Origin: Eledone cirrhosa | Taxonomy: Eukaryota | NCBI GenBank assembly: GCA_964016885.1 | Contig: OZ024742.1 | Coordinates: 267,220,001-267,284,000, forward strand | Length of the DNA stretch: 64,000 nucleotides | Direction: 5' to 3' | In this document: piece by piece, positions 22,661-64,000 of the stretch | Layout: each line of letters opens with the position of its first letter | How positions within the stretch are numbered: the first letter of the stretch is position 1 | Program-made: the position numbers and the translations under genes | Notes under the pieces: model-generated | Database searches by the model: none | What the model was told of the DNA's origin: nothing | The model's input: the letters and a program-made list of their open reading frames with translations, nothing else

Positions 22661-22880
22661 ACATTTTATCTATATATAACTTGACAACGGTTTCATATAT
22701 CAGCAGGCAGGCGAGGATCTGACAGACAGACATCTGTGTTTAACCAAAATAATGTACGAAGCCGAATTTTTGGCTTTTGAAACGGAGAGAATGTATGTAT
22801 GTATGTATGTATGTATGTATGTATGTATGTATGTATGTATGTATGTATGTATGTATGTATGTATGTATGTATGGTGACAT

Positions 22881-23488
22881 GTCAGGTCACCAGTTGGTGC
22901 TACTGGTAACATGTATCCCAGTACAACCTGTCTCAGGGTCGGGTCATTGGCGACTAAACTGGCAACCCCACCAAGGTTTCTTGGTGAGGAGGGTGACTTT
23001 GGACATCCTGCAGGACTAAAAACAAAACTTGTCAAAGAGCAAGGGAGCTCTTAAGACTCAATAGCCATCCAAAATCACCGGGAGAGATGACCCCTTAGCC
23101 TTTGTCAAGGCAGAATTCTAGGAGAAGGAAAACTCTGATATAACACCTGCAACCCTGATGGTATCCAATGATGTTGACTTGTTCTTCTTTTTGGTAAATA
23201 TCATCTTGGTTAAGAGAGTGGGACTGGCTTTGTGCAGTGCCTTTGCTCACTATAAAAGCTTCACAGCACAGGCATTGCTTTATATCTGGAGATCTCTCTG
23301 CACTTGTCATCACATGGTACCATGGGCCCTGCACTATGTGTCAATAATGGTCACAAGTGTAGTGTTTGTACCAGAGTTTTCAAGTCGCTGGCTGGACTAA
23401 AAAGTCACATTCATTCAGCGCATCGGTTGGGGTTCTCCTACATGGATATAAAGTAGTGGCCGTACTCGAAAACGAGTTGGCAGCCACC
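22881..23488 (+). mobile_element. Non-autonomous RTE-type bipartite retroelement, full unit 1, flanked by (TATG)n
   Basis: 5' part has the RTE 5'UTR-like motif ctaggagaaggaaaactctgat. 3' part encodes an RTE-like C2H2 finger (CSVCTRVFKSLAGLKSHIHSAH), then a terminal stem-loop gtggc..actcgaaaacgagt..gccac and an (ATGT)n tail. Confidence 0.7.
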
Positions 23489-23547
23489 ATGTATGTATGT
23501 ATGTATGTATGTATGTATGTATGTATGTATGTATGTATGTATGTATG

Positions 23548-24002
23548 TTATCTCTTTCTTTTAATTTCGAGTATATTTTTTTTGACCGGCCACCTTCCTG
23601 GTGGCAAGGTTGTAAAAGAAAAGAAATTCTCATCCCTTGAATCGCAAGAATGTTTTGCAAATTTTGAAAGTGCCAGCTATCGCAGCCATTTGTAGACTGA
23701 ATTAGGGAGCTGCGCTTTTTGTCCGCATATCCAAGTTCAGTCATACTTTGGTCCAAGCGGGTTGGTATATAACCCGTAGCTCCAATAATGATGGGTATGA
23801 AGCTAAAGGTGTATCTTGGATACTGGATTTGTAAACTCCTCATCAATGGTCCGTAGAAGTCCTCCTTCTCCTAAATTTTTCTGACAACGTGTACATCAAG
23901 TGGGCAGCTGATCTCCACAACACAACACGTTTTCAATGTGTGGTCCCAAACAACAATATCAGGCCGGTTGTGCTTTAATTTGGTGGCAGTTTTTATTTTA
24001 AG
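23548..24002 (-). mobile_element. 5'-truncated R4/Dong-like RLE retrotransposon (endonuclease domain + 3'UTR) inserted in (CATA)n
   Basis: HNRPDIVVWD...VVEISCPLD...EKEDFYGPL...IPIIIGATG is a PD-(D/E)xK restriction-like endonuclease; both junctions are directly in TATG repeats. Confidence 0.8.
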
Positions 24003-24075
24003 TATGTATGTATGTATGTATGTATGTATGTATGTATGTATGTATGTATGTATGTATGTATGTATGTATGTATGT

Positions 24076-24293
24076 ATTGCTTTGTATCTGGAGATCTCTC
24101 TGCACTTATCGTCACATGGTACCATGGGCCCAGCACTATGTGTCAATAATTGTCACAGGTGTAGTGTTTGTAACAGAGTGGTCAAGTCACTAGCTGGACT
24201 AAAAAGTCACACGTGTTCAGCGCCACATCGGTAGGGGTTCTCCTACATGGATATAAAGTAGGGGCCTTTATCGCAAACGAGTTGGTAGCCACC
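24076..24293 (+). mobile_element. RTE-type non-autonomous element, 5'-truncated unit 2
   Basis: Matches the last ~215 bp of unit 1; (TATG)n on both sides. Confidence 0.75.
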
Positions 24294-24346
24294 TGTATGT
24301 ATGTATGTATGTATGTATGTATGTATGTATGTATGTATGTATGTAT

Positions 24347-24951
24347 GTCAGGTCACCAGTTGGTGCTAAAGATAATATGTATCCCAGTACAACCTGTCTC
24401 GTGGTCGGGTCGTTGGCGACTAAACTGGCAACCTCACCAAGGTTTCTTGGTGAGGAGGGTGACTTTGGACATCCTGCAGAACTAAAAACAAAACCTGTCA
24501 AAGGGCAAAGGAGCTCTTACGAGTCAATGGCCATCCAAAATCACCGGGAGAGATGACCCCTTAGCCTTTGTCAAGGCAGAATTCTAGGAGAAGGAAAACT
24601 CTGATATAACACCTGCAACCCTGATGGTATCCAATGATGTTGACTTGTTCTTCTTTTTGGTAAATATCATCTTGGTTAAGAGAGTGGGACTGGCTTTGTG
24701 CAGTGCCTTTGCTCACTATAAAAGCTTCACGGCACAGGCATTGCTTTATATCTGGAGATCTCTCTGCACTTGTCGTCACATGGTACCAGGGGCCCTGCAC
24801 TGTGTCAATAATTGTCACAAGTGTAGTGTTTGTACCAGAGTTTTCAACTCGCTGGCTGGACTAAAAATCACACTCGTTCAGCGCATCGGTAGGGGTTCTC
24901 CTACATGGATATAAAGTAGGGGCCGTACTCGAAAACGAGTTGGCTGCCATC
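24347..24951 (+). mobile_element. RTE-type non-autonomous element, full unit 3
   Basis: Near-identical to unit 1 with the same 5' start gtcaggtcac; (TATG)n on both sides. Confidence 0.75.
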
Positions 24952-24982
24952 ATGTATGTATGTATGTATGTATGTATGTATG

Positions 24983-25013
<31 letters not shown>

Positions 25014-25719
25014 CACAGATATTGAGAGAGCTTATAGATAGGACAACACACGCTGTCTTTTCGTGGGGTAAGTTTTTAATTAATATTTTGTATTCTGAAA
25101 AATACAACAATTTTTTGCTCACTGGTCTCGGGAATATTATGACAGAAGTTTGTGGAAGTTACACAAATATTTTTGTATATTTTGCCAGAGCAATCCTTAT
25201 TTATATTTTACATTTTACATTTACTTACATCTCAATATAACATGGCTAAATTCAAATTTTGCAAAGAGAAGAAAACGGACAAATGAATTAGATACATCTC
25301 ACAATAACGTCTACTCACCCTACCCACCACCACATCGACATTTACACATGTCATTACCCTATCTAGACTAAAGTCACCGGCCTGTTGTCAAACTCTCTAC
25401 TCTGTGTTGAATGTGTATGTGTATATATATATGTGTATGTATATGTGTGTATATACATCACTCAATCAAACGACCATATTTCAACCCCAACATCTACAAC
25501 AACACCGGCAAATGATGTTTACAGCAACAACAGCTTCAGAATGAATTGAAATGAACATTTACAACAACAGCGGCATCAAACGATATAAAAAACAAAACAA
25601 AAAAAACACAAAATAACAAAACACACACACACACACAACTCAACATCAATTGCCACCACCACCACCACCACCACCACCACCACCAGCGACCGGGCCTTAC
25701 GAAAACAACAACTTTAATA

Positions 25720-26070
25720 ATAATAATTTTTCTGCTTTTGGCACGAAGCCAGCGATTGTTCCAGCGCATTACTGGTGCTCTCTTTTGTTGACTCCGTGGG
25801 GATGAAAGGCAAGGCTGACGTTGGCGGGATTTGAGCTCGGAGCGTGGAGAGACATAGCTCTATGCTGTAAAGCAATTATAATAATTGTTTCTACGTTAGG
25901 CACAAGGCCAGCAAATAGCCAGTGCATTACTGGTACTTTATTTTATCGATTCTGTAAGGATGAAAAGCAAAGTTAACCTCGGCCGGATTTGAACTCAGAA
26001 TGGCAAGGGCCGTAACTCTATACGTTAAAGCATGGCGTGCGACCCTCTACCAATACTGCCAATCCACCAA
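25720..26070 (-). mobile_element. Two tandem tRNA-derived SINE copies (25720-25875, 25880-26070)
   Basis: Same SINE body, B-box and head as the other copies. Confidence 0.85.
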
Positions 26071-26168
26071 TAATACTGAACGGTAACACGAACGGCTTCA
26101 ACTATACGAACTCTTTTGAAAGTCAACAGTTGACATGATCTTGTAATCTTGTATCAGTAATGACGGTA

Positions 26169-26203
<35 letters not shown>

Positions 26204-26334
26204 AGTGAGTACCGTGTGTGTGTTTGTTTGTATGCATGAGTGTTGCTGTGTGCGCGCGTATGTATGTGTGTGTGCACGCGTGTGTGTATGTCGTACGTAT
26301 AAGTGTCAATAAGTGAGTTTTTTGTTTTTTTTTA

Positions 26335-26620
26335 TGCGCGGGGACATAGAAATAGTCGGGTTGGATACCCGATCGCGCAGTTAAACCACTGGGAGTGAAG
26401 GACCCCTAGCCCTTGTCAGGGCATTCTTCTAGGAGAAGGCATCTCAGGAAACTGGGTTAACTCCGACATAAAACCTGCGGCCCAGTAGTTACCGATGATG
26501 TTGATCTTTTCTTCTTTTCGAGTTATAGCTACTGTCGCTCAGAGAGTGGGATTGGCTCAGTGCACAGTCTTTCCTCACTTTAAAAATATTCGTCACGCAC
26601 AGACATTGCACGATTGCATT
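26335..26620 (+). mobile_element. Diverged relative of the RTE-type non-autonomous element
   Basis: gacccctagcccttgtcagggca..ctaggagaagg..acctgc..gatgatgttgatcttttcttctttt..agagagtggga aligns with the middle of units 1, 3 and 4. Confidence 0.65.
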
Positions 26621-26668
26621 AATTAAATTTTATTGATGTATGTATGTATGTATGTATGTATGTATTAT

Positions 26669-27276
26669 GTCGGGTCACCACTTGGTGCTACTGGTAACAT
26701 GTATCCCAGTACAACCTGTCTCATGGTCGGGTCGTTGGCGACTAAACTGGCAACCCCACCAAGGTTTCTTGGTGAGGAGGGTGACTTTGGACATCCTGCA
26801 GGACTAAAAACAAAACCTGTCAAAGGGCAAAGGAGCTCTTAAGAGTCAATGGCCATCCAAAATCACTGGGAGAGATGACCCCTTAGCCTTTGTCAAGGCA
26901 GAATTCTAGGAGAAGGAAAACTCTGATATAACACCTGCAACCCTGATGGTATCCAATGATGTTGACTTGTTCTTCTTTTTGGTAAATATCATCTTGGTTA
27001 AGAGAGTGGGACTGGCTTTGTGCAGTGCCTTTGCTCACTATAAAAGCTTCACGGCACAGGCATTGCTTTATATCTGGAGATCTCTCTGCACTTGTCATCA
27101 CATGGTACCATGGGCCCAGCACTATGTGTCAATAATTGTCACAAGTGTAGTGTTTGTACCAGAGTTTTCAAGTCGCTGGCTGGACTAAAATGTCACACTC
27201 GTTCAGCGCATTGGTAGGGGTTCTCCTACATGGATATAAAGTAGTGGCCGTACTCGAAAACGAGTTGGCAGCCACC
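26669..27276 (+). mobile_element. RTE-type non-autonomous element, full unit 4
   Basis: Near-identical to units 1 and 3; (TATG)n on both sides. Confidence 0.75.
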
Positions 27277-27291
27277 ATGTATGTATGTATG

Positions 27292-27323
<32 letters not shown>

Positions 27324-27454: not shown

Positions 27455-29570
27455 TCTATAGAACTTGTGTTATGGGCCTGAAGTTATCTAACGTCCGTCT
27501 TTTCAACTTTCCTTATCAGCGTCACTACGCCCCGGCTCAGAGAACCGGGAATACTGCGGTTCTGCTCCCAGTTGCAATAGAGCGCTTCGATGTGATCAGA
27601 GAACAAGTCTGGCATATCTACATAAACCTCGTAGTGCAGACCTTCCAAACTGCGTTATTGCACTTCGTGCACTCGGAATCTCGGCAAAAGTTATCGGCTT
27701 TTCGCAGCGCTCATCATCTTCGGGTGTAAGACGCGGTAGGATGCTGAGATAGGGCCTGAAATCGGCCACAGTCTCTGACCTGAGACTCCCCACGAACAGC
27801 CGAGCAATATGCTGGCGAAAGTCCCCACAAATCTGCCTGGAATCGTTCACTTTAGATTCGTTTCGGTTTATCAAAGATCGAATTGTGGTTTAGTTACCAC
27901 GCTGCACCTCTTCCACGCGGGCCCATCGAACAGCTCTTGATCCCTCGTTTCTCATAGCACGCACCTTAGATCGTGCTACTATAGGACGAAATGGTCTAAT
28001 TCCATTCTCGCCGCTAGAAGGTAATTTGCAATGCCACTTCTAATCGCCTCGTCTAATTTAGTCACCAGCTCCCTCTTTTCTATTTTTCTCTAATCCTACC
28101 TCTTTGCCTAACCCTATCAAAATTACTCTAATCTCTCTACTGAGAGCCCCACACCACCCGTTGTTCACGACATTCCCTGTCAAATTTTGTTTAACTAAAT
28201 TGTTGACCAGGTCCCTGTAAGCCTTACGTACTGGAAAAGACATGTTCAGCTTCCACTAACCAGGTCCTAACCTTCGTGTCATATTTAGGTTGACCATACA
28301 GTTCACAAACTTGTGATCTAAATAGGCGACCGTTTGAAAGTGTGGACAGCATATATATACTTATCTATTGACCTAATAAAAATCTATCTATATACGAACT
28401 AGATTACACTATGTGGTTTGTCCAGGTCCACACTGGTGCATTAGGGAAATCTAGTTGGTACCTGTCACACAGTTTGAATTGGCTGAGCTTGTAGGCGAGG
28501 CTTTTGCACCACTAGCTCCTATCAGCTATTCTCACACAATCTCGGCGTGCATCTAAGATGCCGTCCCGATCCCTAGCTAACAGTAAAGGCGTCCAGGAGC
28601 CCAAAGAAGTCCGGCTCTCCGCCTCTGTTTAGGGCGTAGACGGCCACCAGTTTAAAGGCACCAACTTCGCTATTGTTCACGTCTAGGACTAATAACTTAC
28701 CATCCGGGTTTAGGAAGATCGACCTTACCTCGAGATCCAGGTCGTTCGTAAATAGCACTTACACCACACCTCCCATCTTCGGCCGACAAAGAGATGCGAA
28801 GATTTGATAATAGTCGAAACTGGTGGCTTGTGCGCGTGTGTCGGAAATCCTAGCCTTGCTGATGTGAATTACATTCATATCTAGTGACCTGAGGTCGTTC
28901 AGCAGGTGAACTTGCTTCCAGGACGACCCCAGGTCACAAGCATTGAAACATCCTATTCTTATGATGGCCATGTTGGCAGGCTAAAACAGGTAGAGGAAAG
29001 GTATACTTACCTCCCAGGTGCATGTGGAGGTCAGGTGGCTCGACCTCCATTTTTGGTGGAGTTTCTTTTGGGAAGCCCGTAAGCAATTTGCTTGTTTCTC
29101 TTATATTCGGGGTTCCCATGTCACGAGGATACCTCTCCCTAATCCCTTTGTAGGTATCGAGAAACATTCGTACCGGAAACAAATATTCTGGCACGTGAAT
29201 TGAGGTCGTTCCAAAGATCTTCCCATCTTTTTCGATATCTTGTCTTCGTATTATAAGGGCCATACATTGCCTGTTGGTCCTACTTACAACCACGAAATTT
29301 TGTGCGCTTCATTGTTGTTGTGGTTTTACTTGTTTGCGTTTGGGTGATTGTGGTTGTGATGGTGTTGTTGATGTTTTGAATGTGTCTGTGTTCGTTGTGG
29401 GTGTGGTGTTTGCGATTACAGTTGTTTGTGCATTATTTTGTTCTTGTGTTTATAGGTGCTTATTTGCGTTTGAAGGATTGTTGTGATGGTGTCTGCATTT
29501 TCTGTCGTGGGTGTTTTTGTGATGTGTGGAGATTTTGGGGGTATGAGCAGTGTAGTTTTTGCAGATGTTT
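27455..29570 (-). mobile_element. Decayed Tx1-clade LINE: ORF1 3' half + ORF2 APE endonuclease to start of RT
   Basis: MAIIRIGCFNACDLGSSWKQVHLLNDLRS (28971) is homologous to the ORF2 start at 60740; also FKLVAVYA, RSYID, DHK, PYLSILPRL and NFRPIT. Many stops. Confidence 0.85.
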
Positions 29571-32761: not shown

Positions 32762-32991
32762 TTCTAGACTAAAATTTGATCGTTTTACCACTTTGTATCT
32801 CGGCTATGTAACACACTTGAAAATTTGCATTGAGCATTTTGTCATACCGATAACTGGCTAGTACTAAGTACTACTAAGGTAGTACTAAGTACTAGCCAGT
32901 TATCGGTATGACAAAATGCTCAATGCAAATTTTCAAGTGTGTTACATAGCCGAGATACAAAGTGGTAAAACGATCAAATTTTAGTCTAGAA
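32762..32991. repeat. Near-perfect palindrome, 104-bp perfect arms plus inner stem and 4-nt loop
   Basis: 32762-32865 is the reverse complement of 32888-32991; the centre is a-agtactac-taag-gtagtact-a. Confidence 0.95.
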
Positions 32992-39839: not shown

Positions 39840-41294
39840 AAATATAAATAACAATAACAGAATAGCAAGGAAAATACAACAATGAAAATTCCCGAACAGG
39901 GGGGATAATCACCAACGGTTGACTTAAGTGCCCATCCAAACCTGTACCACCCGACACTTCGAGAGCACCCGAGAAAGAAACCCCTCTCCTTCTCAAATTA
40001 AACAGCCTACAGGCTCATGCTCAGAGTATGCCCATTCACACAGGCCATTCTCGCCACATCCACCCACCTTTTAGCAAATGAACTGAGGAGCAGCACTTCT
40101 CTCTCCACCTTCACCTTCTTTTTCAAGTGAAACTTAAAACGTTGAGGAGAGATTAGTCTCAAAGAAAGGTGTCTGTCTTCAGTCCTTTCAACCTGGTCCA
40201 CCATATAAACATCTCTCCCTACCGCCACTAGACAAGGAAAATTGTCTGCCCTTCCTGGCCAAAAGAAGGCGGCGGGGCGATCTTCACTATGGACTCGGCC
40301 GATAGCCGGATCCGTTCCACACGCGACAACAGCTGTTAGACCTGACTTCCCAAGTCAGTACTACACAGACATTGGACGAATGCTTGCAGAACAGTATCGT
40401 CGCTCTTCGCGAATCTCGGACAAGTCCGTCTGACTTCACTTCCGTGCCAGTAGAGTTTATTTCAAACCAGCAGTAACCCCACTCCCCAGGCGACCTGCGG
40501 AAAGGCCCGTCTGACAAATGGCGACCACACCTATTTACCATGTAGCCAGAATATCTGCAGCTGCTGCAGCCTCAGCGCATATTTGCACATCATTAGTCAC
40601 GGCATGTCCAGCCCTCTGTGTAGAGGGTGCTGGCAACAGATGGACCGCCTCACCAACTGAACCTGTCCCCTCCAGAAGTTGAAGAGGAGCCACTCCAATT
40701 TCGCGGGGTGCAAACTGGGGCAACTATCTATATGACCCTATGCAGTTGGTCCAGTTTCATGGGAAAACATTGCCTTTTCTTAGCTGCAATAGCAGCGAAT
40801 GTATTCTTGTAGATGTTGTTCAAGTTATTGTTTTTGTTGCTGCCGTTGCTGCTAGTTGTCATGTCATTGTTACCATTGTTGTTGTTGGTGATGGTGGTGG
40901 TGCTAATTTTGTTGTTGGTATTGTTGTCGGTGAGGTTGCATGTTATAGTTGTAATTTTTACATTGTTCGCATTGGTGCTTGTGGTGGGTTTGCCATCCCT
41001 TCTCTCAACGTTTGACCTGCTGTCACGCCACAACAGACTCAATGTGTGTGTGTGTGGGGGGGGGGGGGGCGTGTCTTGCATATGTTTTTTTAAGAAAAGT
41101 TATTTTCGAAAAAAATAAAGAGTAAATATTTGGGCCCGAAGGCCCAAATATTATGCTATTGCCTTCACACAGGGCAAAGACGGGTGTCTCATGACACCTC
41201 TGTCACAAAAATACAACAATTACTTCAATGCAAAAATTTGGAAATAAACCAACTCACGGAGCTCACAAAAACACGTCTTCACAGTCCGACAACC
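39840..41294 (-). mobile_element. Internally deleted Tx1-clade element (5'UTR, ORF1 N-terminus, ORF2 C-terminus, part of 3'UTR)
   Basis: Asn/Thr-rich ORF1 start (ORF 40728-41081) and KRWVDVARMACVNG..LSMSL C-terminus (ORF 40007-40228). The 5'UTR resembles 20880-21049. Confidence 0.8.
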
Positions 41295-45201: not shown

Positions 45202-45639
45202 TAAGAGTCGATGGCCATCCAAAATCACCGGGAGAGATGACCCCTTAGCCTTTGTCAAGGCAGAATTCTAGGAGAAGGAAAACTCTGATATAACACCTGC
45301 AACCCTGATCGTATCCAATAATGTTGACTTGTTCTTCTTTTTGGTAAATATCATCTTGGTTAAGAGAGTGGAGACTGGCTTTGTGCAGTGCCTTTGCTCA
45401 CTATAAAAGCTTCACGGCACAGGCATTGCTTTATATCTGGAGATCTCTCTGCACTTGTCGTCACATGGTGCCATGGGCCCAGCACTATGTGTCAATAATT
45501 GTCACAAGTGTAGTGTTTGTACCAGAGTTTTCAAGTCGCTGGCTGGACTAAAAAGTCACACTCGTTCAGCGCATCGGTAGGGGTTCTCCTACATGGATAT
45601 AAAGTAGTGGCCGTACTCGAAAACGAGTTGGCAGCCACC
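45202..45639 (+). mobile_element. RTE-type non-autonomous element, 5'-truncated unit 5
   Basis: Matches the 3' ~435 bp of units 1, 3 and 4; preceded by mixed TATG/TA repeat and followed by (AT)n. Confidence 0.75.
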
Positions 45640-45670
<31 letters not shown>

Positions 45671-46121
45671 TACATTCAGACACACACACACACACACAGC
45701 TATCTATATAAATTTATATCTGCATACATTCAGAGTGGGTAATGGGGACTGCAGACTTGTGTATATAAATATACACACATTTAATATGTAGTCATGTATA
45801 CATGCCAGAAATTTCAAATGTCCCTCTAGATTGAGAAAAATGATAAATGTATATTTATATACACACAGATCTTACACTTCTGCTACTAGCCCACGTCTTT
45901 ATTTATATATATATATAATTAATATATGTGATTATAGTGTGATAGCGCACTATTTTCATAGTTGAGATGAGTTTAGCTCAATGCACATTTTCACCTTCCT
46001 TCTTCAGTAGCAGAGCATTTATAATTCAAAATTCAATAAGACCAAGGATTAATATTATTCTTATTTATTTATTTATACATCTACAAATGTTTCAATGTGC
46101 CTAGAATATTTCATCAATTGT

Positions 46122-46610: not shown

Positions 46611-47042
46611 TATTTCCTGAAGAGGTGCGGCCTAGAATAAAGCACTGAAAATGGAATTACTTAACTGATATCTTTTTTGTGTTCTTCAAAATTGATGAAA
46701 TATTCTGGTCGCGTTGAAACGTTGGGAGATGTAGAAATGTATAATAATAATATTAATACATGGTCACACACACACACACACACACACGCACCCCCCCCCC
46801 CCACATTTAAATTTGTTTCGCATCAATTAAGTGAAATTTACTATTCCTGTGCTCTTCTGCAGGTATCCAGAAATTGGTAAGTTTCACTTCAAAATACTTA
46901 AGAAGACTGAGAGAAATGTGTTGCTGAACGCACATGTGTCACAGCGCCTAGCTCGTCCCATAATCGTGCCGCTAAAAATAGCAGCCGGTTTTATGGGACT
47001 AAAAATTAGCTCTACGTATGGAGCCGAGAATATTGTACATAT

Positions 47043-47469
47043 AGTTATTAAATCAAATAGTCTTTTACAAATAAATAGCTCAAAGAAAGGAATATTTCCG
47101 AGCCGTGTAATACAAATGAATATATGATAAGGATAAACACTGATACAATTATACATGTGTTTGCATTGCAAATGACCAAGTTAGCTAGATTGAAAAATAC
47201 TAATTAAAATAATACGGTTTGCCTGTCTCTATTTAAAATAATATTATTATTTTAAAATAAAATAATATTATTATTTTAAATCGCGACAGGCAAACCGTAT
47301 TATTTTAATTAGTATTTGTCAATCTAGCTAACTTAGTCATTTGCAATGCGAACACATGTATAATTGTATCAGTGTTTATCCTTATCATATATTCATTTGT
47401 ATTACACGGCTCGGAAATATTCGTTTCTTTGAGCTATTTATTTGTAAAAGACTATTTGATTTAATAACT
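47043..47469. repeat. Long palindrome, ~200-bp arms with few mismatches
   Basis: ORFs 46884-47171(-) and 47341-47598(+) begin with nearly the same peptide; the centre holds two aaaataatattattatttt units. Confidence 0.95.
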
Positions 47470-47559
47470 CTCTATATAATATATATAAACATAGGTATTT
47501 TCAGGGAATGTAGGAATTCCAAGCACAGGAAAGACGCTAATAATAGTCGATTACAAAGA

Positions 47560-47746: not shown

Positions 47747-47856
47747 ATTGTAAAATAATCCAATGGATTTATGTTATATATTCCTTATATTAAGTTGAAT
47801 AATGGCTTAACTTGTGAAATCTCATCTACAGAAACAACCACAGATACATGCGCGCG

Positions 47857-47887
<31 letters not shown>

Positions 47888-47891
47888 TCAT

Positions 47892-47929
<38 letters not shown>

Positions 47930-47952
47930 TCATACACACACACATACATACA

Positions 47953-47990
<38 letters not shown>

Positions 47991-47996
47991 GTGTGT

Positions 47997-48045
<49 letters not shown>

Positions 48046-48194
48046 GTATGTGTGTGTGTATGAATATATATATATGTGTGTGTGAGCGCGCATGTATCTG
48101 TGGTTGTTTCTGTAGATGAGATTTCACAAGTTAAGCCATTATTCAACTTACTATAAGGAATATATAACATAAATCCATTGGATTATTTTACAAT
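47747..48194. repeat. Palindrome with ~110-bp unique arms and mirrored CA/TA/TG microsatellite core
   Basis: ORFs 47771(+) and 48170(-) start with the same peptide. Confidence 0.95.
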
Positions 48195-54350: not shown

Positions 54351-55326
54351 TTATCTAGTTCTTTTAAAATAAACTATTTATACGTAGTAATATCAATCTT
54401 ATATAAGTTCTTATATAAATCTGTGACGAAGTCATCGTATAGGACCGAAAAATCTTCGATCGTTTTCCCATACACTCAATACTTTAATTAAGCCAGTATC
54501 GTTAAGATACTAACCAAAAGGCAAGCAGAGTGAGCCCTTATACATTGAATAGTGAGAAAAGCGATTTCGTGTTGGGAGAGAATTAGATACTCTCGTCCCA
54601 GATTAATGCATTAGTTCCCACAACTCTATCTGCTGGCGTCAGAAGAAAGCATGAACAGGAGACGGTTGTCTTTAATGTGTAGAAATATACAAGATCCCTA
54701 GCAGACAACTGATAAAGGAACAGTTTTTCCCGTTCATGCTTTCCTCTTATTTTTAAGTATACCTTATCCAGCAACTACTCTTCTTCATATATTTTATCAT
54801 ATTTCGCTGTGACCTGTCTTCTCTCTCCTTCTACCTACCTATTTTGTTGGTATCTACTCTTCCCCCTCCATCTTACTCTCCATTTCTCCCTCTCTCTTTC
54901 ACTCACCCTCTCTCTGCTAGCCACCTCATTTTTTCCCTCGCCTGACCCTCTAGCAGTCTCTTTTCTCACTCACACTTGCAGAAGTCAGCCTTGTCTTTTT
55001 TCTCGTCCGCACATACTCGAATTTATGTTCAGTAATTGTCGTTGACTTTAATTTTCATTCTTCGAGTTGCTCACACACTCTTAAGTTTGTTGTTTCCCGT
55101 TTCTTTTCTCTGTTTTTCTCTTTTCGCTTTTATTTGCTTTTCCCTTCTGTTATCCTATATTTTCTTTCTCTCTCTCCTTTTTACCCCCAATAACTTACCT
55201 TAGTTATTGAACGCACAGGGGGAGGGGGGCGGATCTTGTCTTTATTGCGTAGTGATATCCAAGACCCCCAGTAGTCAACTGATGAAGGAAAACTTTCTCC
55301 CATTCATGCTTTCTTATTATTTTTAA

Positions 55327-55327
55327 G

Positions 55328-55370
<43 letters not shown>
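55327..55370. repeat. (TATC)n microsatellite, left boundary of the Tx1 array
   Basis: Seen directly; further (TATC)n tracts at 56121-56145 and 58641-58714. Confidence 0.97.
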
Positions 55371-56120
55371 AGGGGCTTTACCCGTTCGAGAAAGGCTCTA
55401 CAGACACGGGCGCCCGGGTAGGGACCCCGCCAAAAAGATCTGTCCCAGATGCGTGTGCGACGAGGAAACCGTTGCACACGCATTGGTACACTGCTCGGGC
55501 GTAGCCGATCTGTGGGGCTATGTCGAACAACTGCTGTCAAGGGTGGGACCGATCCGGTTGACCACCGAGTCTATTGTAATGATCAAGCCGCCTCCCCCCT
55601 TCAAAGATGAAGCAGAGGCGGTGTTTCTGTGCGTAATAGCCATGGCGAAAGAGGTTGTATGGTGGACGCGTCTGAAAGGACTGAGGTCAGGCACCTTTCT
55701 CTCTGGCCAACAACTGGTCCGTTTCTTCCGATATCATTTCGGAAGAAGGATCAGGATGGAGAGAGAGGTGCTGCACCCCAGCCGTTTCTATGAAAGATGG
55801 GTGAAAGTGGCGAGAATGGCCCGTGTGAATGGGCCTTCACTCTACATCAGACTATAGGTGAGGAAGATGAAAGACCAAGGGAGCACCCCTTCTCTGTGCT
55901 CCTGAGGAGAAGGGTTGCACACTTTTTTCGGGGGTGTGTGCGACCCCCCAAGGCGCCTCCTCTCTATTGAGGATTTTGTTAAAAATTTTATTTTTTGTTA
56001 TATCTTATTTTATTTTTATATTTTGTTATTGCCTCCTCCTTATTGAGGACGCCTTTTTGTGTAAACTCCCCCCTTTGTACTTGTCCCACTTTTGATGCCC
56101 TAGTGGCAAATAAAAGAAAC
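55371..56120 (+). mobile_element. Tx1-clade LINE copy A, 5'-truncated (750 bp)
   Basis: Almost identical to 57891-58640; bounded by (TATC)n on both sides. Confidence 0.92.
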
Positions 56121-56145
56121 ATATCTATCTATCTATCTATCTATC

Positions 56146-58377
56146 GCCCGACTGTTCGGGAGGGGCGGGGAGCCGGATGGGAACGTGGACTTCGGTCCAT
56201 ACCTCGACGGCCTGCCGCGCCTCTCGGACAGGGAGGCGAAGTCCTGCGAGGAGCCGATTTCGGCCGCTGAGATAGAGGACGTGCTGAGCCAATGCGGCAA
56301 ACGCAAATCCCCGGGTCTCGATGGTCTTCCTTACGAATTATATCTAGCTATGCCGGACTTGTTCCCCGATCTCCTCGAGGCGGTCTACTGCAACTGGCAA
56401 CAGAATGGGAGAATTCCCTGTACTGTGACCAAGGGCGTAGTCACGCTAGTGAGGAAGGACGAGAACAAGGGGGACGAAATAAGTAACTTCAGGCCCATAA
56501 CTCTGCTAAATACAGAGTTACAGATTTTGGCCAAGGTGCTAGCAAAGAGGTTGGCGCTTGTCGTGGGCAACCTGGTGGGAGATGCGCAGACATGCGCTAT
56601 CCCGTCCAGGTCCATCCATGACAACCTCCACCTCATGCGATACATCATAGAGAGGGTTGGGAACGAACCCGGCTTTGGTGGGGCTCTGATCAACTTGGAT
56701 CAATCTAAGGCGTTCGATAGGGTCGACCATGGTTACCTGGATGCGGTGCTAGCGGCGGCAGGCTTCGGACCCGTTTTCAGGGGCTGGATCACTGCTATGC
56801 ACAGCAGCCGCATCTGCTCTAGGGTCAAGGTGAACGGCTACCTCTCGGAGCCGTTCAAAATCGCGCGGTCCATCCGACAGGGGTGCCCTCTCTCCTCCCT
56901 TCTGTATGTGTTGACTCTCGAGCCACTACTGCGGAAGTTGGAGTTGTTGCAGGGCATCCCTTTGGAACCGGGATTGCGGAAAGCGGTGTCGGCCTACGCC
57001 GATGACGTGACAGTAATGGTGTCGACGGCCTCCGAAATCGAGGCGGTCGGCACCTTACTGGAGGAGTACGAAAAGTTCACAGGGGCTAAGCTGAACCGGG
57101 ACAAGTCGATCGGTTTGCAACTCGGCACGTGGAGGGGCAGACCGATGCCCTCCGATGGCGTCGTCGGACGCTGGACGGAGGGCCCGGTGAAGTTGCTCGG
57201 GGTCTGGTTCGGACCGGACCTCCAGGTGGAGAAAAACTGGGCGGAGGTTACGAACAGGGTGTTTGCACTGACCCAGAAGTGGGCCAGTTGCAAACTATCC
57301 CTGAAAGGTCGGGCGGAGGTGGCGAACACCTACATAGCGTCCGTCATCTACTACCGCCTGACCGTAGTGCCCTGCCCAAGGGAAACCCTCACCAAGATGG
57401 AGCGCGCGCTCTTCCAATTCCTTTGGAAGAGGCGGGCTCCTATGGTGAGGAGATCCATCTGCTGTCAACACCCTTCGAAAGGAGGGCTGGGGATGCCGTG
57501 GCTAATGATGCGTAAACACGCATTAAGGCTACGGCACCTCTACGTATTCCTCACCGGACAACCGGTGTGGGCCTCGTTTGTGAGGCGAACCTTTCCCAGA
57601 CTCGTCTCACTCACCGAGCTGCAATCCTGGGTCAAGCAAAGACCGAGAAAACTGGGCGCCTGGCACACTGAGTGTGCCCAGGCGCTCACCGCCTTCTGGC
57701 AGGCGGATCCGGTTATCAGTGGAGACTCCACCGCAACATTCTATAGAGGGCTGGTACGCAGCAGGTGCGACGACGCCCTCGGAGAAGCCCTAGACATGGA
57801 GGAGGACGAACTGGCCAGCCTGTTCGGTAGGACATTCAGCCCGGGACCTATGGACAACTTCCAGAAGTCCCTGGCCTGGCAGTGCTACCGAGGGGCTTTA
57901 CCCGTTCGAGAAAGGCTCTACAGACACGGGCGCCCGGGTAGGGACCCCGCCAAAAAGATCTGTCCCAGATGCGTGTGCGACGAGGAAACCGTTGCACACG
58001 CATTGGTACACTGCTCGGGCGTAGCCGATCTGTGGGGCTATGTCGAACAACTGCTGTCAAGGGTGGAACCGATCCGGTTGACCACCGAGTCTATTGTAAT
58101 GATCAAGCCGCCTCCCCCCTTCAAAGATGAAGCAGAGGCGGTGTTTCTGTGCGTAATAGCCATGGCGAAAGAGGTTGTATGGTGGACGCGTCTGAAAGGA
58201 CTGAGGTCAGGCACCTTTCTCTCTGGCCAACAACTGGTCCGTTTCTTCCGATATCATTTCGGAAGAAGGATCAGGATGGAGAGAGAGGTGCTGCACCCCA
58301 GCCGTTTCTATGAAAGATGGGTGAAAGTGGCGAGAATGGCCCGTGTGAATGGGCCTTCACTCTACATCAGACTATAG
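56146..58377 (+). CDS. Truncated ORF2: reverse transcriptase + C-terminal CCHC zinc finger (open frame, no genuine start)
   Basis: KSPGLDGLPYE, NFRPITLLN, LDQSKAFDRV, IRQGCPLS, AYADD, KLLGV, HPSKGGLG and CPRC-x8-H-x4-C. Confidence 0.9.
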   Translation, partial: ARLFGRGGEPDGNVDFGPYLDGLPRLSDREAKSCEEPISAAEIEDVLSQCGKRKSPGLDGLPYELYLAMPDLFPDLLEAVYCNWQQNGRIPCTVTKGVVTLVRKDENKGDEISNFRPITLLNTELQILAKVLAKRLALVVGNLVGDAQTCAIPSRSIHDNLHLMRYIIERVGNEPGFGGALINLDQSKAFDRVDHGYLDAVLAAAGFGPVFRGWITAMHSSRICSRVKVNGYLSEPFKIARSIRQGCPLSSLLYVLTLEPLLRKLELLQGIPLEPGLRKAVSAYADDVTVMVSTASEIEAVGTLLEEYEKFTGAKLNRDKSIGLQLGTWRGRPMPSDGVVGRWTEGPVKLLGVWFGPDLQVEKNWAEVTNRVFALTQKWASCKLSLKGRAEVANTYIASVIYYRLTVVPCPRETLTKMERALFQFLWKRRAPMVRRSICCQHPSKGGLGMPWLMMRKHALRLRHLYVFLTGQPVWASFVRRTFPRLVSLTELQSWVKQRPRKLGAWHTECAQALTAFWQADPVISGDSTATFYRGLVRSRCDDALGEALDMEEDELASLFGRTFSPGPMDNFQKSLAWQCYRGALPVRERLYRHGRPGRDPAKKICPRCVCDEETVAHALVHCSGVADLWGYVEQLLSRVEPIRLTTESIVMIKPPPPFKDEAEAVFLCVIAMAKEVVWWTRLKGLRSGTFLSGQQLVRFFRYHFGRRIRMEREVLHPSRFYERWVKVARMARVNGPSLYIRL

Positions 58378-58640
58378 GTGAGGAAGATGAAAGACCAAGG
58401 GAGCACCCCTTCTCTGTGCTCCTGAGGAGAAGGGTTGCACACTTTTTTCGGGGGTGTGTGCGACCCCCCAAGGCGCCTCCTCTCTATTGAGGATTTTGTT
58501 AAAAATTTTATTTTTTGTTATATCTTATTTTATTTTTATATTTTGTTATTGCCTCCTCCTTATTGAGGACGCCTTTTTGTGTAAACTCCCCCCTTTGTAC
58601 TTGTCCCACTTTTGATGCCCTAGTGGCAAATAAAAGAAAT
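56146..58640 (+). mobile_element. Tx1-clade LINE copy B, 5'-truncated (~2.5 kb)
   Basis: Starts abruptly at the position equivalent to 61946 of copy C; bounded by (TATC)n. Confidence 0.93.
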
Positions 58641-58641
58641 A

Positions 58642-58714
<73 letters not shown>

Positions 58715-58927
58715 CTGGGATGGACACACGCGTATAACTTGCTGAGTAAGTTCTGTTTAAATTTCTATAGAAATTCTTGTCTGATAACTTTAATTTTTGT
58801 ACCATTTTGTAGAGGGACTGCCAGGTCAAACTTTGATCTGGTCAGTCTCTCAAAATATTCTACGCCTTTAGGCGAAATAGTTAAACAAAAAAAAGTTTTT
58901 TCTTGTTGAAAAGTCAATATTTTTTAA

Positions 58928-60715
58928 ATGGCCGAAGCTTCTTCACCAAAATTCGAAGGAGGAAAGGGGAAGATGAACTTACAGCTTCCCCCTGCCACTG
59001 TCACAGTAGCAGAGGTCAAGAAGAAAGGTCAGCCAGAGGAAGAATTCTCTCCACCTGTTAACCGACAACTTGACGTTGCCATGGCAACAACTCAAAGAAC
59101 CAGCAGCAACAGCAACAACAACAATGCGACGGACGAAAACAACACCAATAACAATAACAATAACAACAACAAGACCAATAACGGTGACAACAACAACAAT
59201 GATAACAACAACACCACCAACGACAACAACAACACAAACAAACAAAATTTCTCCTTCGCCGAGACGACAAGGAAAACCCTCGACTATCTGCCAGTAGATA
59301 TAACAAAAGCGAAGGAGCTACTGGCGGATGCGAAAAAATATATAGTGTACGGGGAAAATGGTTCATTCACAATCCATTCCCCCCCGGAACTAAAAAGCCA
59401 GAGACTCCTAAACACGGTCATGTTTAGGACAATCTCGAACAAAAGTAAAAAACCAGCTCAACCATCACAGAGCGAGATAGAGCTGGTTTTAAAAGACGTC
59501 ATGAAGGACATCACCTTCATTCAGAAGGATAGACTCTACGGGAGTCTATCCATTCTCATGAAGGACAGGGACACAGCAGTGAAACTGTCCATCAAACCAA
59601 TCACATCCACCGCATACACCTTCTACCCTACGTACATGGGTAGAAGAACACAAAAAATAAAAATCCACACCATCCTGCCGATTATGGACATATGGTGGGT
59701 TTTGACAGGTTTTCTGGACCTGGAGGATGACATGCTGGTGTCCATGGGAAAGGCATCGGGTGACGCGTTCAGTGGAACGAGCCTCGAACTTGTAGTTCAA
59801 ATGAGGCCCGAAAGGATCGCCCAGATCCCTGAACGCGTCATACTGGATGATCTAACCTTCATCAACATTACCGTTGAGGGTAGACGGCCCTCGTGTTACC
59901 TCTGCGGAACCAGAGGTCACCTGAGGGCTGTCTGTCCCCAACTTAATAAGAAAACCCCAATCCTGCCTACACCACCAACAACTGCACAACCAACACAATC
60001 ACCACAACTACCACTACAAAAACAACCACCACAGCTCAAACCAAAACAAAACAATGTCCAACCCATCCCCTCCACTCAAAAAACAAAAACAATTTCCAAA
60101 ACACCCGTACCGCAAACACAACCCGAAAATATACCCCTCCCCTCCAACGCGGAAGATGACCCTAGTTCGTCGTCAGACGAGGAGGAGCACTTCCACACAA
60201 TCAAAAGAAAAAAAAGAAAACACACCTCAGACACACAAATGAAAAAAACCCCTCCCCAAAACATAACACTGACACCAACACAAAAGAGCTCACAACAACA
60301 GCAAACAAAAAACACCACACAAAAACAAAAACATGCATACACATACATAAATACAAGAAACAAAAAACTGTTAAACATTGTGTACAACAACAATCTAATA
60401 AAAACACAAGGGCCTAACTTCACCCAGGCAGGGGATTTCCCCCACCTCAAAATGATTAAGGCCCCACAGGACACCTATAAAACTTTAAAAAACAATTTTA
60501 AAGAGGACGTGGGTCCCCCCTGCGTCGGGCCCATTAACCGCGTCCTCCTAAAAAACTATCCCACCCCCTCCCCAAACACCCACACAACTCCAAGCTCCCC
60601 AACCACACATCACACTGATGCCCCCACACTTCCACAAACCACCACCCCACCCAACAACCCATCCCCCACCCTAATGGAAATTGTGCAGCCCGATACCCGG
60701 GACGCAGAGAGGTAA
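58928..60715 (+). CDS. LINE ORF1 gag-like nucleic-acid-binding protein (595 aa)
   Basis: ATG-initiated, poly-Asn tract, CCHC knuckle CYLCGTRGHLRAVC, Pro/Gln/Thr-rich tail, basic KRKKRK; lies immediately upstream of ORF2. Confidence 0.9.
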   Translation: MAEASSPKFEGGKGKMNLQLPPATVTVAEVKKKGQPEEEFSPPVNRQLDVAMATTQRTSSNSNNNNATDENNTNNNNNNNNKTNNGDNNNNDNNNTTNDNNNTNKQNFSFAETTRKTLDYLPVDITKAKELLADAKKYIVYGENGSFTIHSPPELKSQRLLNTVMFRTISNKSKKPAQPSQSEIELVLKDVMKDITFIQKDRLYGSLSILMKDRDTAVKLSIKPITSTAYTFYPTYMGRRTQKIKIHTILPIMDIWWVLTGFLDLEDDMLVSMGKASGDAFSGTSLELVVQMRPERIAQIPERVILDDLTFINITVEGRRPSCYLCGTRGHLRAVCPQLNKKTPILPTPPTTAQPTQSPQLPLQKQPPQLKPKQNNVQPIPSTQKTKTISKTPVPQTQPENIPLPSNAEDDPSSSSDEEEHFHTIKRKKRKHTSDTQMKKTPPQNITLTPTQKSSQQQQTKNTTQKQKHAYTYINTRNKKLLNIVYNNNLIKTQGPNFTQAGDFPHLKMIKAPQDTYKTLKNNFKEDVGPPCVGPINRVLLKNYPTPSPNTHTTPSSPTTHHTDAPTLPQTTTPPNNPSPTLMEIVQPDTRDAER

Positions 60716-60739
60716 GTGCCTTTTCTCTTCACTACCAAC

Positions 60740-63700
60740 ATGGCTATGCTAAGAGTAGGCTGTTTAAATGCGCGTGGCCTGGGCTCAACTTGGAAGCAAG
60801 CAATGCTTCTAAATGACCTCAGGTCACAACGTATAGATGTGATGGTTATTTGCGAGGCCCGGATCAGCAACGTGCGACAGCTGGCCCCCGCCTTTGATGA
60901 CTTTGAGATGCACGCATCTCTCTGTCAGCCCGGAGGCGGGGGTGGAGTTGTCGTTCTGCTGCAAAAACATCTGGGTCTCGCAACACAGATGGTACATTTG
61001 GACCCGGAGGGTCTACTAGTGGTTCTGGACCTTGGCAGTGGTAAAGGTGGAGCGTTTAGGTTGGTAGCCGCCTACGGCCCTTTCGGGTCAATGCGGCCGG
61101 ACTTCTTCCATCGTCTGGAGACTTTTCTAGGGACGTCCCGCTCCTTGCTATTAGTGGGGGACTGGAATGGTATCCTAGATGCACGCTGGGACTACGTAGG
61201 GGCCTGCCCCGATAGAGAGGGGTGTAATAGCCTCAAAGGGTTAATCGGTCGATTTGACCTGGCCGATAGATATCGACTAGATTTTCCGACTGCGCCAACC
61301 TGGACTTGGGCAAATCGTAGCGGATCATCTAGGTCGTACCTAGATAGGTTCTTAGTTAGAATTAAGGATAAGGACTTTTTAAGTTGTCCAAAAATGCGCA
61401 TGGTTGGCTATTCAGACCACAAATTAGTGACCTGCATGGTCAACCTTGACAGAACTCATAGACAGGGCCCCGGTTACTGGAAGCTCAACTTGTCCTTGCC
61501 GGCAAGTAGAGCCTACAGGAATCGGATTAGTACGTTAGTTAAGGAACGGTTGACTGGAGCGATCGTCAACAGCAGGTGGTGGGTATCTCTAAAGAGAGAG
61601 ATTAGAGTAGTCTCGATTGAATTTAGTAAGGTTCTAGCTGCGGATAGGAATAGGAAGGAAAGGGAGCTAATAGATAGAGTAGAAGAGGCAATTAGAAGCG
61701 GCGACGTGGCCAGAGTGCTAGCGTCGAGAACGGCTTTGAGCCAGTTTTTCGACGCGAAGCACGAAGGCTGCGTTGTCCGAAGTAAAATACGTGCTCTAGG
61801 GAACGAGGGGGCCAAAGCTGTTAGCTGGGCCCGCGTGACAGAGGCCAACAGTGGAACTAAATCCACCATCCGGTCTTTGCGAGACCTGGATGGACGGGCG
61901 ATTCTTGAGCCTAAGCAGATGTGTGAGGCCTTTCAAAGGCACTTTGCCCGACTGTTCGGGAGGGGCGGGGAGCCGGTTGGGAACGTGGACTTCGGTCCAT
62001 ACCTCGACGGCCTGCCGCGCCTCTCGGACAGGGAGGCGAAGTCCTGCGAGGAGCCGATTTCGGCCGCTGAGATAGAGGACGTGCTGAGCCAATGCGGCAA
62101 ACGCAAATCCCCGGGTCTCGATGGTCTTCCTTACGAATTATATCTAGCTATGCCGGACTTGTTCCCCGATCTCCTCGAGGCGGTCTACTGCAACTGGCAA
62201 CAGAACGGGAGAATTCCCTGTACTGTGACCAAGGGCGTAGTCACGCTAGTGAGGAAGGACGAGAACAAGGGGGACGAAATAAGTAACTTCAGGCCCATAA
62301 CTCTGCTAAATACAGAGTTACAGATTTTGGCCAAGGTGCTAGCAAAGAGGTTGGCGCTTGTCGTGGGCAACCTGGTGGGAGATGCGCAGACATGCGCTAT
62401 CCCGTCCAGGTCCATCCATGACAACCTCCACCTCATGCGATACATCATAGAGAGGGTTGGGAACGAACCCGGCTTTGGTGGGGCTCTGATCAACTTGGAT
62501 CAATCTAAGGCGTTCGATAGGGTCGACCATGGTTACCTGGATGCGGTGCTAGCGGCGGCAGGCTTCGGACCCGTTTTCAGGGGCTGGATCACTGCTATGC
62601 ACAGCAGCCGCATCTGCTCTAGGGTCAAGGTGAACGGCTACCTCTCGGAGCCGTTCAAAATCGCGCGGTCCATCCGACAAGGGTGCCCTCTCTCCTCCCT
62701 TCTGTATGTGTTGACTCTCGAGCCACTACTGCGGAAGTTGGAGTTGTTGCAGGGCATCCCTTTGGAACCGGGATTGCGGAAAGCGGTGTCAGCCTACGCC
62801 GATGATGTGACAGTAATGGTGTCAACGGCCTCCGAAATCGAGGCGGTCGGCACCTTACTGGAGGAGTACGAAAAGTTCACAGGGGCTAAGCTGAACCGGG
62901 ACAAGTCGATCGGTTTGCAACTCGGCACGTGGAGGGGCAGACCGATGCCCTCTGATGGCGTCGTCGGACGCTGGACGGAGGGCCCGGTGAAGTTGCTCGG
63001 GGTCTGGTTCGGACCGGACCTCCAGGTGGAGAAAAACTGGGCGGAGGTTACGAACAGGGTGTTTGCACTGACCCAGAAGTGGGCCAGTTGCAAACTATCC
63101 CTGAAAGGTCGGGCGGAGGTGGCGAACACTTATATAGCGTCCGTCATCTACTACCGCCTGACCGTAGTGCCCTGCCCAAGGGAAACCCTCACCAAGATGG
63201 AGCGCGCGCTCTTCCAATTCCTTTGGAAGAGGCGGGCTCCTATGGTGAGGAGATCCATCTGCTGTCAACACCCTTCGAAAGGAGGGCTGGGGATGCCGTG
63301 GCTAATGATGCGTAAACACGCATTAAGGCTACGGCACCTCTACGTATTCCTCACCGGACAACCGGTGTGGGCCTCGTTTGTGAGACGAACCTTTCCCAGA
63401 CTCGTCTCACTCACCGAGCTGCAATCCTGGGTCAAGCAAAGACCGAGAAAACTGGGCGCCTGGCACACTGAGTGTGCCCAGGCGCTCACCGCCCTCTGGC
63501 AGGCGGATCCGGTTATCAGTGGAGACTCCACCGCAACATTCTATAGAGGGCTGGTACGCAGCAGGTGCGACGACGCCCTCGGAGAAGCCCTAGACATGGA
63601 GGAGGACGAACTGGCCAGCCTGTTCGGTAGGACATTCAGCCCGGGACCTATGGACAACTTCCAGAAGTCCCTGGCCTGGCAGTGCTACCGAGGGGCTTTA

Positions 63701-64000
63701 CCCGTTCGAGAAAGGCTCTACAGACACGGGCGCCCGGGTAGGGACCCCGCCAAAAAGATCTGTCCCAGATGCGTGTGCGACGAGGAAACCGTTGCACACG
63801 CATTGGTACACTGCTCGGGCGTAGCCGATCTGTGGGGCTATGTCGAACAACTGCTGTCAAGGGTGGGACCGATCCGGTTGACCACCGAGTCTATTGTAAT
63901 GATCAAGCCGCCTCCCCCCTTCAAAGATGAAGCAGAGGCGGTGTTTCTGTGCGTAATAGCCATGGCGAAAGAGGTTGTATGGTGGACGCGTCTGAAAGGA
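60740..64000 (+). CDS. LINE ORF2: APE endonuclease + reverse transcriptase + zinc finger (3'-incomplete, absent from the ORF track)
   Basis: MAMLRVGCLNARGL..., ICEAR, LVAAYGP, VGDWN, TW, SYLDR, SDH (APE motifs), in frame with the RT (YADD at ~62795). Confidence 0.93.
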   Translation, partial: MAMLRVGCLNARGLGSTWKQAMLLNDLRSQRIDVMVICEARISNVRQLAPAFDDFEMHASLCQPGGGGGVVVLLQKHLGLATQMVHLDPEGLLVVLDLGSGKGGAFRLVAAYGPFGSMRPDFFHRLETFLGTSRSLLLVGDWNGILDARWDYVGACPDREGCNSLKGLIGRFDLADRYRLDFPTAPTWTWANRSGSSRSYLDRFLVRIKDKDFLSCPKMRMVGYSDHKLVTCMVNLDRTHRQGPGYWKLNLSLPASRAYRNRISTLVKERLTGAIVNSRWWVSLKREIRVVSIEFSKVLAADRNRKERELIDRVEEAIRSGDVARVLASRTALSQFFDAKHEGCVVRSKIRALGNEGAKAVSWARVTEANSGTKSTIRSLRDLDGRAILEPKQMCEAFQRHFARLFGRGGEPVGNVDFGPYLDGLPRLSDREAKSCEEPISAAEIEDVLSQCGKRKSPGLDGLPYELYLAMPDLFPDLLEAVYCNWQQNGRIPCTVTKGVVTLVRKDENKGDEISNFRPITLLNTELQILAKVLAKRLALVVGNLVGDAQTCAIPSRSIHDNLHLMRYIIERVGNEPGFGGALINLDQSKAFDRVDHGYLDAVLAAAGFGPVFRGWITAMHSSRICSRVKVNGYLSEPFKIARSIRQGCPLSSLLYVLTLEPLLRKLELLQGIPLEPGLRKAVSAYADDVTVMVSTASEIEAVGTLLEEYEKFTGAKLNRDKSIGLQLGTWRGRPMPSDGVVGRWTEGPVKLLGVWFGPDLQVEKNWAEVTNRVFALTQKWASCKLSLKGRAEVANTYIASVIYYRLTVVPCPRETLTKMERALFQFLWKRRAPMVRRSICCQHPSKGGLGMPWLMMRKHALRLRHLYVFLTGQPVWASFVRRTFPRLVSLTELQSWVKQRPRKLGAWHTECAQALTALWQADPVISGDSTATFYRGLVRSRCDDALGEALDMEEDELASLFGRTFSPGPMDNFQKSLAWQCYRGALPVRERLYRHGRPGRDPAKKICPRCVCDEETVAHALVHCSGVADLWGYVEQLLSRVGPIRLTTESIVMIKPPPPFKDEAEAVFLCVIAMAKEVVWWTRLKG

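Follow-up and report, generated by a model that had tools for sequence, protein, structure and literature searches.

Among the retrotransposons which lack long terminal repeats (LTRs; hence non-LTR) and have an apurinic/apyrimidinic-type endonuclease (APE), the clades described as target-specific are Tx1 and R1 (PMC4640811). Kibi and Koshi, teleost families of the Tx1 clade, have the microsatellite targets (TC)n and (TTC)n, respectively (Kojima and Fujiwara 2004, as cited in PMC4494074 and PMC3812793). The microsatellite targets given in PMC3812793 are ACAY (Waldo), AC (Mino), TC, TTC and TAA (Dong), Waldo and Mino being cited there to an R1-clade paper; the choice of microsatellites by APE endonucleases is described in the same source as not well understood. 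The crocodilian Tx1-1_Crp group prefers (TTCC)n or (TTTC)n, a family being considered target-specific there if more than 20% of its flanks are of one type (PMC4494074). The Tx1L endonuclease nicks almost exclusively at its target, and L1 has a poly(A) tail and the loose consensus TTTT/AA (PMC1950540). In Octopus vulgaris, 13 recently active L1-Tx1 families are described, with 421 insertions and 80 consensus sequences (PMC13282606). The present work deals with a 64-kb window (i.e., the whole stretch of DNA analysed) of contig OZ024742.1 of Eledone cirrhosa, in which an array of related retrotransposon copies runs from position 55,327 to past the window end. This element is probably a young L1-group (likely Tx1-type) retrotransposon which inserts mostly at (TATC)n, in one orientation and with target duplications of 11-23 nucleotides (nt), likely through nicking of the GATA strand, in a fixed register, by its own APE endonuclease, reverse transcription being primed there.

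The array consists of three copies on the same strand (+), linked by (TATC)n. A first-pass annotation of this DNA had reported three copies in the same orientation with different 5' ends; all three were located, with lengths of 749, 2,494 and 5,725 nt. Copy 3 was read 439 nt beyond the window edge, from the adjacent genome sequence. UTR stands for untranslated region and ORF for open reading frame.

55328..55371, + strand: left run (TATC)10-TATA, with (TATC)10 at 55328-55367; the duplication flanking the array has its 5' copy in the final 20 nt (55352-55371)
55371..56121, + strand: copy 1, 5'-truncated, 749 nt plus terminal CA (element part 55371-56119, i.e., element positions 4977-5725); end of ORF2 and 3' UTR
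56122..56145, + strand: (TATC)6, linking copy 1 to copy 2
56146..58641, + strand: copy 2, 5'-truncated, 2,494 nt plus terminal TA (element part 56146-58639, i.e., element positions 3232-5725); reverse transcriptase (RT), zinc finger and 3' UTR, with an open frame
58642..58714, + strand: (TATC)18-T, linking copy 2 to copy 3, with (TATC)18 at 58642-58713; the final few bases may be the 5' end of the element
58715..64000, + strand: copy 3, full length (5,725 nt), ending at window-equivalent 64439, then CT and (TATC)4-TATA

The 3' end of every copy is AATAAAAGAAA plus two variable bases (CA, TA and CT in copies 1, 2 and 3, respectively), then TATC. As previously annotated, the visible junctions are in (TATC)n, i.e., (TATC)10, (TATC)6, (TATC)18 and (TATC)4-TATA, and poly(A) is absent at all three 3' ends; AATAAA sits just before the end. 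A 20-nt duplication, (TATC)4-TATA, brackets the whole array, before copy 1 and after copy 3. The remainder of the window contains a single run of at least 3 TATC/GATA units. Between copies 1 and 2 there is one difference in 749 positions; between copies 2 and 3 there are 29 in 2,494, and 17 of these form a cluster about the beginning of the 3' UTR.

At the genome scale, exact patterns replaced a DNA search with the 3' UTR, common words being skipped in the latter. The genome contains 1,963 exact matches to a 23-nt 3' motif and 358 to a 26-nt 5' motif. Two bases and then TATC follow 1,671 of the 1,963 exact 3' ends, and two bases and then TATA follow 242 (1,913 combined); the third base after AATAAAAGAAA is other than T in only 12. 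Flanks were classified for the first 95 of 100 copies listed on one contig (C1), the 5' junction being resolved in 93 and the 5' flank class being that of the last 30 nt before the copy. In this sample TAT is nearly invariant past the element end, each of its three letters being found in 93-94 of 95 copies. The 5' flanks are TATC-type in 60 copies, TA-type in 9 and other in 24; none is in the opposite orientation, in agreement with the strand-specific insertion into (TATC)n put forward by the first-pass annotation. Moreover, 28 of 30 full-length 5' ends are TATC-flanked (these overlap in part with the 95-copy sample). The background was obtained from nineteen random 10-kb stretches (190 kb), which contain 97 (TA)8+ runs vs. 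3 (TATC)4+ runs; TATC is thus used far above its availability. A strict GATA-only specificity is ruled out by the 242 TATA-followed ends and by the exceptions with a non-T third base. From the proposed targeting of GATA repeats a strong preference is therefore retained, but not strictness: the core is TAT[C/A]T, and (TA)n and minisatellites are also used.

TATC could also be merely a templated 3' tail, insertion being random and the tails attracting nothing in particular; 8 of the 93 copies, with TATC at the 3' end and an «other» 5' flank, agree with this. The 5' junctions do not. To avoid counting the tail of a neighbour, or 5' bases of the element itself, as flank, only 5'-truncated copies were kept whose 400 nt upstream contain no related 3' end; these solitary copies are 53 of the 74 truncated ones. 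Their 5' flank is TATC in 25 cases, TA in 9 and other in 19, against 0.26% TATC and 7.1% TA at random positions. The 5' and 3' flank classes also match, with 55 TATC/TATC, 8 TA/TA and 13 other/other copies of 93. Finally, at minisatellite or (TA)n sites (L017, L077, L085, L136, L012, L013, L081) no TATC unit is found after the element, thus TATC is not an obligatory tail. The pattern set in advance as refuting a target, i.e., TATC at the 3' side only with random 5' flanks, was searched for, and the 25 of 53 solitary copies are at variance with it. The templated tail, which is rejected on the enrichment at the 5' junction and on the tail-free non-TATC sites, appears extremely improbable, and the repeat is the target, as had been annotated.

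The register of insertion was studied through target duplications starting from the third base past AATAAAAGAAA (n = 93): a non-periodic and thus readable one (11-23 nt) is present in 22 copies, a purely periodic one in 40 and none in 31. Twenty of the 22 non-periodic duplications reach at least 12 nt, shuffled pairings (200) giving a mean of 2.35 and a maximum of 7. In four clear cases (L216, L218, L219 and L220) a non-T third base is also found in the upstream copy of the target. The 3' dinucleotide tracks the 3' UTR subfamily: it is CT in 16 of the 21 copies of type B and in 6 of the 64 copies of type A (Fisher p 1e-8). Since they differ by subfamily, the two terminal bases are element-derived, i.e., copied from the RNA. 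As duplications start at a fixed base and the terminal bases come from the element, the element/target boundary is fixed; with the standard model of target-primed reverse transcription (TPRT), the first nick would then be at GATA^GATA on the opposite strand.

The following mechanism is proposed: (i) the APE endonuclease would nick at 5'-GATA^GATA-3', TATA and single mismatches being tolerated; (ii) the complementary DNA would start at the two bases past AATAAAAGAAA, normally without a poly(A) tail; (iii) the TATC strand would be nicked in turn, 11-23 nt further on, which would produce the target duplication; (iv) this duplication would restore the target right behind the new 3' end, where later copies, of the same and of sister families, could insert, leading to one-way arrays; (v) a short pairing between RNA end and target may sharpen the junctions, and probably does not choose the site.

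The last point bears on whether the endonuclease or the RNA chooses the site. An A-run at the 3' end is found in 2 of the 1,963 ends of this family and in 3 of 6,155 ends of its sister family (the search misses tails beginning before the end of the searched motif). Four of these five copies then continue with TATC- or TATA-type sequence, and the fifth (L107) lies in (TAA)n. Because no pairing is possible between an A-tail and a GATA primer, the A-run copies at TATC/TATA make the balance lean towards a choice by the endonuclease rather than by RNA pairing, as far as five sequences may indicate. Conversely, a loosely specific endonuclease could nick AT-rich sites, only the primers pairing with a read-through UAUC at the RNA 3' end being extended, and donors located in TATC arrays would perpetuate the target. 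The near invariance of TAT after the element end fits such a scheme, as does the element-encoded terminal dinucleotide, which means that the RNA reaches at least the target; TCTCT precedes 22 of 30 full-length 5' ends (counted by eye), suggesting target-like 5' bases, and the A-tailed copy in (TAA)n can be added. Short RNA-target pairing is described for SART1Bm and R1Bm (PMC7265360). On the other side, apart from the four A-run copies still located ahead of TATC/TATA-type sequence, the last base of the primer may mismatch TAT, 10 of the 12 exceptions being not A-tailed, and pure (TA)n or minisatellite sites receive no TATC unit. RNA-guided choice is thus considered unlikely, and choice of the site by the endonuclease is preferred.

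Several points weigh against this interpretation of the element: (i) the A-run test has n = 5, the copy in (TAA)n is explicable by poly(A) pairing and at least one A-run is maybe a later expansion; (ii) the 5' flank is of neither the TATC nor the TA type in 19 of the 53 solitary truncated copies; (iii) no duplication of at least 8 nt is present in 31 of 93 copies; (iv) TATC runs may have lengthened after insertion, which would inflate the enrichment; (v) the sample is made of the first matches of one contig and is non-random, and L085 and L086 resemble one duplicated insertion; (vi) no named Tx1 protein is among the matches of the protein searches and cluster look-ups.

Arrays are frequent in the sample. 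A related 3' end lies within 400 nt upstream in 27 of 92 copies, and 25 of 95 copies have an element-like downstream neighbour, in the same orientation in 25 of 25 cases. At locus L139 three copies reuse one site, with nested duplications which include unique flank. Elsewhere in the genome, arrays combine families 80-99% alike. For the array of the window, sequential insertion is the likeliest origin, copy 1 being the first since it adjoins the outer duplication; this retains the separate insertion events of the first-pass annotation. The inner runs (6 and 18 units) exceed the 4-unit duplication, thus slippage or added units are needed under sequential insertion. This excess, and the single 20-nt duplication which brackets the whole array exactly, could be expected from one template-jumping event among three RNAs, from later recombination or from mis-assembly; it must be noticed that the families do recombine (in five full-length copies an identical 3' half is joined to a 5' half of 65-78% identity) and that the array junctions are not bridged by contigs nor by the one run of restriction-site-associated DNA sequencing aligned to the first junctions, repeats being skipped in this alignment. 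We nevertheless consider such origins improbable: the three different terminal dinucleotides and the two 3' UTR haplotypes of the copies do not correspond to a collapsed or duplicated single copy, other arrays mix families 80-99% alike with nested duplications, and slippage is able to extend the inner runs. Sequential insertion is therefore kept.

As for the surroundings of the array, its right flank (locus L001, window-equivalent 64491-64864, - strand) is an inverted 5' part of an older relative, with an ORF1 N-terminus 67% identical. The left flank is a 95-nt unit (55236-55330) duplicated at 54666-54760, the second copy continuing without a TATC run. The two flanks have no obvious original continuity and the pre-insertion site is unexplained.

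The element is young, as first annotated: twelve full-length main-type copies differ on average by 0.6%. Both ORFs are full length in 4 of 16 sampled full-length copies. Five full-length copies (L070, L092, L102, L129, L143) are mosaics, with 65-78% identity to copy 3 in 5' UTR and ORF1, about 88% in the endonuclease and >99% in RT and 3' UTR. For the sister family (identity about 84%), 6,155 exact 3' ends were counted, and two bases plus TATC follow 24 of the first 30 listed. Near-identical pieces were also seen at low depth in sequencing runs labelled as other organisms, contamination or diet being possible. No RNA run was listed among the sequencing runs which contain the sequence.

The coding features of copy 3 are the following (lengths in amino acids, aa).

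58928..60715, + strand: ORF1, 595 aa; N-terminus rich in Asn, a single CCHC knuckle (59894-59935), C-terminus rich in Pro, Thr and Lys
60740..64177, + strand: ORF2, 1,145 aa; Exo_endo_phos, RVT_1 and zf-RVT (below cutoff) by Pfam
60740..61450, + strand: ORF2, endonuclease (APE) domain with its catalytic motifs; the model resembles the human L1 endonuclease
62273..63004, + strand: ORF2, reverse transcriptase, RVT_1 by Pfam (residues 512-755)
63665..63835, + strand: ORF2, C-terminal zinc-finger region; zf-RVT match under the curated cutoff, CPRC...HALVHC

Both ORFs had been called intact, which is true once copy 3 is followed beyond the window edge. The element is an L1-group non-LTR retrotransposon, with N-terminal APE, RT and C-terminal zinc finger, and it displays variable 5' truncation (copy lengths 44-5,725 nt), a single fixed 3' end and target duplications, i.e., the hallmarks of TPRT. 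The best sequence match of ORF2 in PDB is human L1 ORF2p (E 2e-47), R2 reaching only 3e-19. The endonuclease fold predicted from a single sequence was unusable (predicted local distance difference test, pLDDT, 33.7), and a model from a 60-row alignment was used (pLDDT 93.7), which matches L1-EN (E 2e-19, template-modelling score about 0.8). When only the endonuclease was compared with PDB by phmmer, nothing reached significance. Of the named proteins, one of Argonauta hians comes nearest (65% identical), which points to an octopod as the likely host; the others are proteins of Patella caerulea (near 30%), a Pol-like protein of Phallusia and L1 proteins of plants. In an RT tree of 39 rows, which contains no named Tx1 anchor, the element groups with the Argonauta protein, apart from four plant L1 proteins. 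The Pfam search of ORF1 matched no family; its CCHC knuckle, CYLCGTRGHLRAVC, was read from the sequence, and the Atlas look-alikes have zf-CCHC. A CCHC zinc knuckle in ORF1 is a feature of the Tx1 clade, but plant L1 has knuckles too, thus it is not diagnostic alone. Taking architecture and such features together, Tx1-type membership is likely. Among the protein clusters, P0176 contains eleven near-identical ORF2 relatives of Patella caerulea (SNE40_003393-003415), with nearly consecutive locus tags on one contig, which suggests a tandem array of a related element in the limpet.

Other repeats are present in the window. An older relative (18843-19265, - strand) has 46% amino-acid identity to the ORF2 C-terminus, and its 3' end runs into TATTATTATTA, not TATC; it may represent a sister lineage whose target is (TAT)n. 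In the pattern search of the genome, the exact motif of its end gave no match besides the place it comes from. Further degenerate relatives, also on the - strand, lie at 6585-6948 (ending in (TA)n), 27469-28979 and 39992-40722. A second, unrelated repeat-bound system is found at 22791-27321 (- strand) and 45202-45672, where non-coding elements of about 610 nt are arranged head to tail in (CATA)n. A 30-nt motif of this element has 9,023 occurrences, and most of the first 20 loci are flanked on both sides by (CATA)n or (TA)n. Within the same system, a 453-nt fragment (23549-24001) encodes an RPDIVV motif, typical of long interspersed elements with a restriction-like endonuclease. Long near-perfect inverted repeats with arms of 113-225 nt, resembling miniature inverted-repeat transposable elements or foldback elements, are located at 47030-47482, 32762-32991 and 47747-48194. 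An abundant repeat of the short interspersed element (SINE) type, with copies 60-87% alike, occurs at 1488, 18267, 25703, 43227, 47600, 51893 and 53650; it resembles an octopus SINE.

A wider reading can be advanced tentatively, with less confidence than the insertion preference itself: a guild of octopod Tx1-type families sharing one GATA-nicking specificity might occupy, and partly create, a large share of the GATA microsatellites of the genome, entering short TAT[C/A]T seeds and duplicating them, slippage extending the runs, so that each copy would leave a better target. The two families together have 8,118 exact 3' ends, a related element lies next to 2 of the 4 (TATC)3+ runs of the random DNA, and the recombinant subfamilies, with endonucleases about 88% identical, retain the same target. 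The family bears on the origin of GATA repeats in cephalopod genomes and on population work with GATA markers, as loci may be interrupted by kilobase insertions. The family offers intact, very young copies and about 2,000 sites which fix the nick register to one base; the rare exceptions are natural controls, and the sister and recombinant families allow domains to be compared, so that the protein-versus-RNA question is directly testable. The recombinants and the (TAT)n-ending relative would form a natural series to map the residues which set the repeat unit. The use of the APE domain as a site-specific integration tool, also envisaged by the first-pass annotation, is of limited value, the target being a common multi-copy repeat and the preference not strict.

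When compared with the known systems, the element shares with Waldo, Mino and Dong the interruption of simple repeats; they differ by clade (R4 for Dong) and by repeat unit. Human L1 ORF2p is the closest solved structure, both by sequence and by endonuclease fold, and human L1 target duplications are of similar length. On the contrary, the poly(A) tail of L1 has its counterpart in only 2 of 1,963 ends here, and the ORF1 of the element has a CCHC knuckle. The L1-Tx1 families of Octopus vulgaris come without target analysis, the word «target» having no match in the text and supplement of PMC13282606 as accessible. In the literature searched, seen in part as partial texts, no family targeting GATA or TATC was found; Repbase, Dfam and Kojima and Fujiwara 2004 lie outside this search, so an existing entry is possible. 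In the accessible main text of PMC4494074, GATA is not mentioned. Like Kibi and Koshi, the element is an APE-type non-LTR retrotransposon inserting in a microsatellite; compared by description only, they differ by host (teleosts vs. a likely octopod) and by target, (TC)n and (TTC)n vs. TATC with TA as second choice. As in the crocodilian Tx1-1_Crp group, related families have a common tetranucleotide target and the preference is not absolute; with 1,671 of 1,963 3' ends and 60 of 93 5' flanks of one type, the element is far above the 20% of flanks used in PMC4494074. The sense-strand targets of that group are pyrimidine-only, which TATC is not, and 1,913 of 1,963 ends go into TATC/TATA rather than into (TC)n, (TTC)n, (TTCC)n or (TTTC)n. 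The strand-specific (TATC)n preference of this young L1-group element is thus a well-supported case of a new target unit for a known habit.

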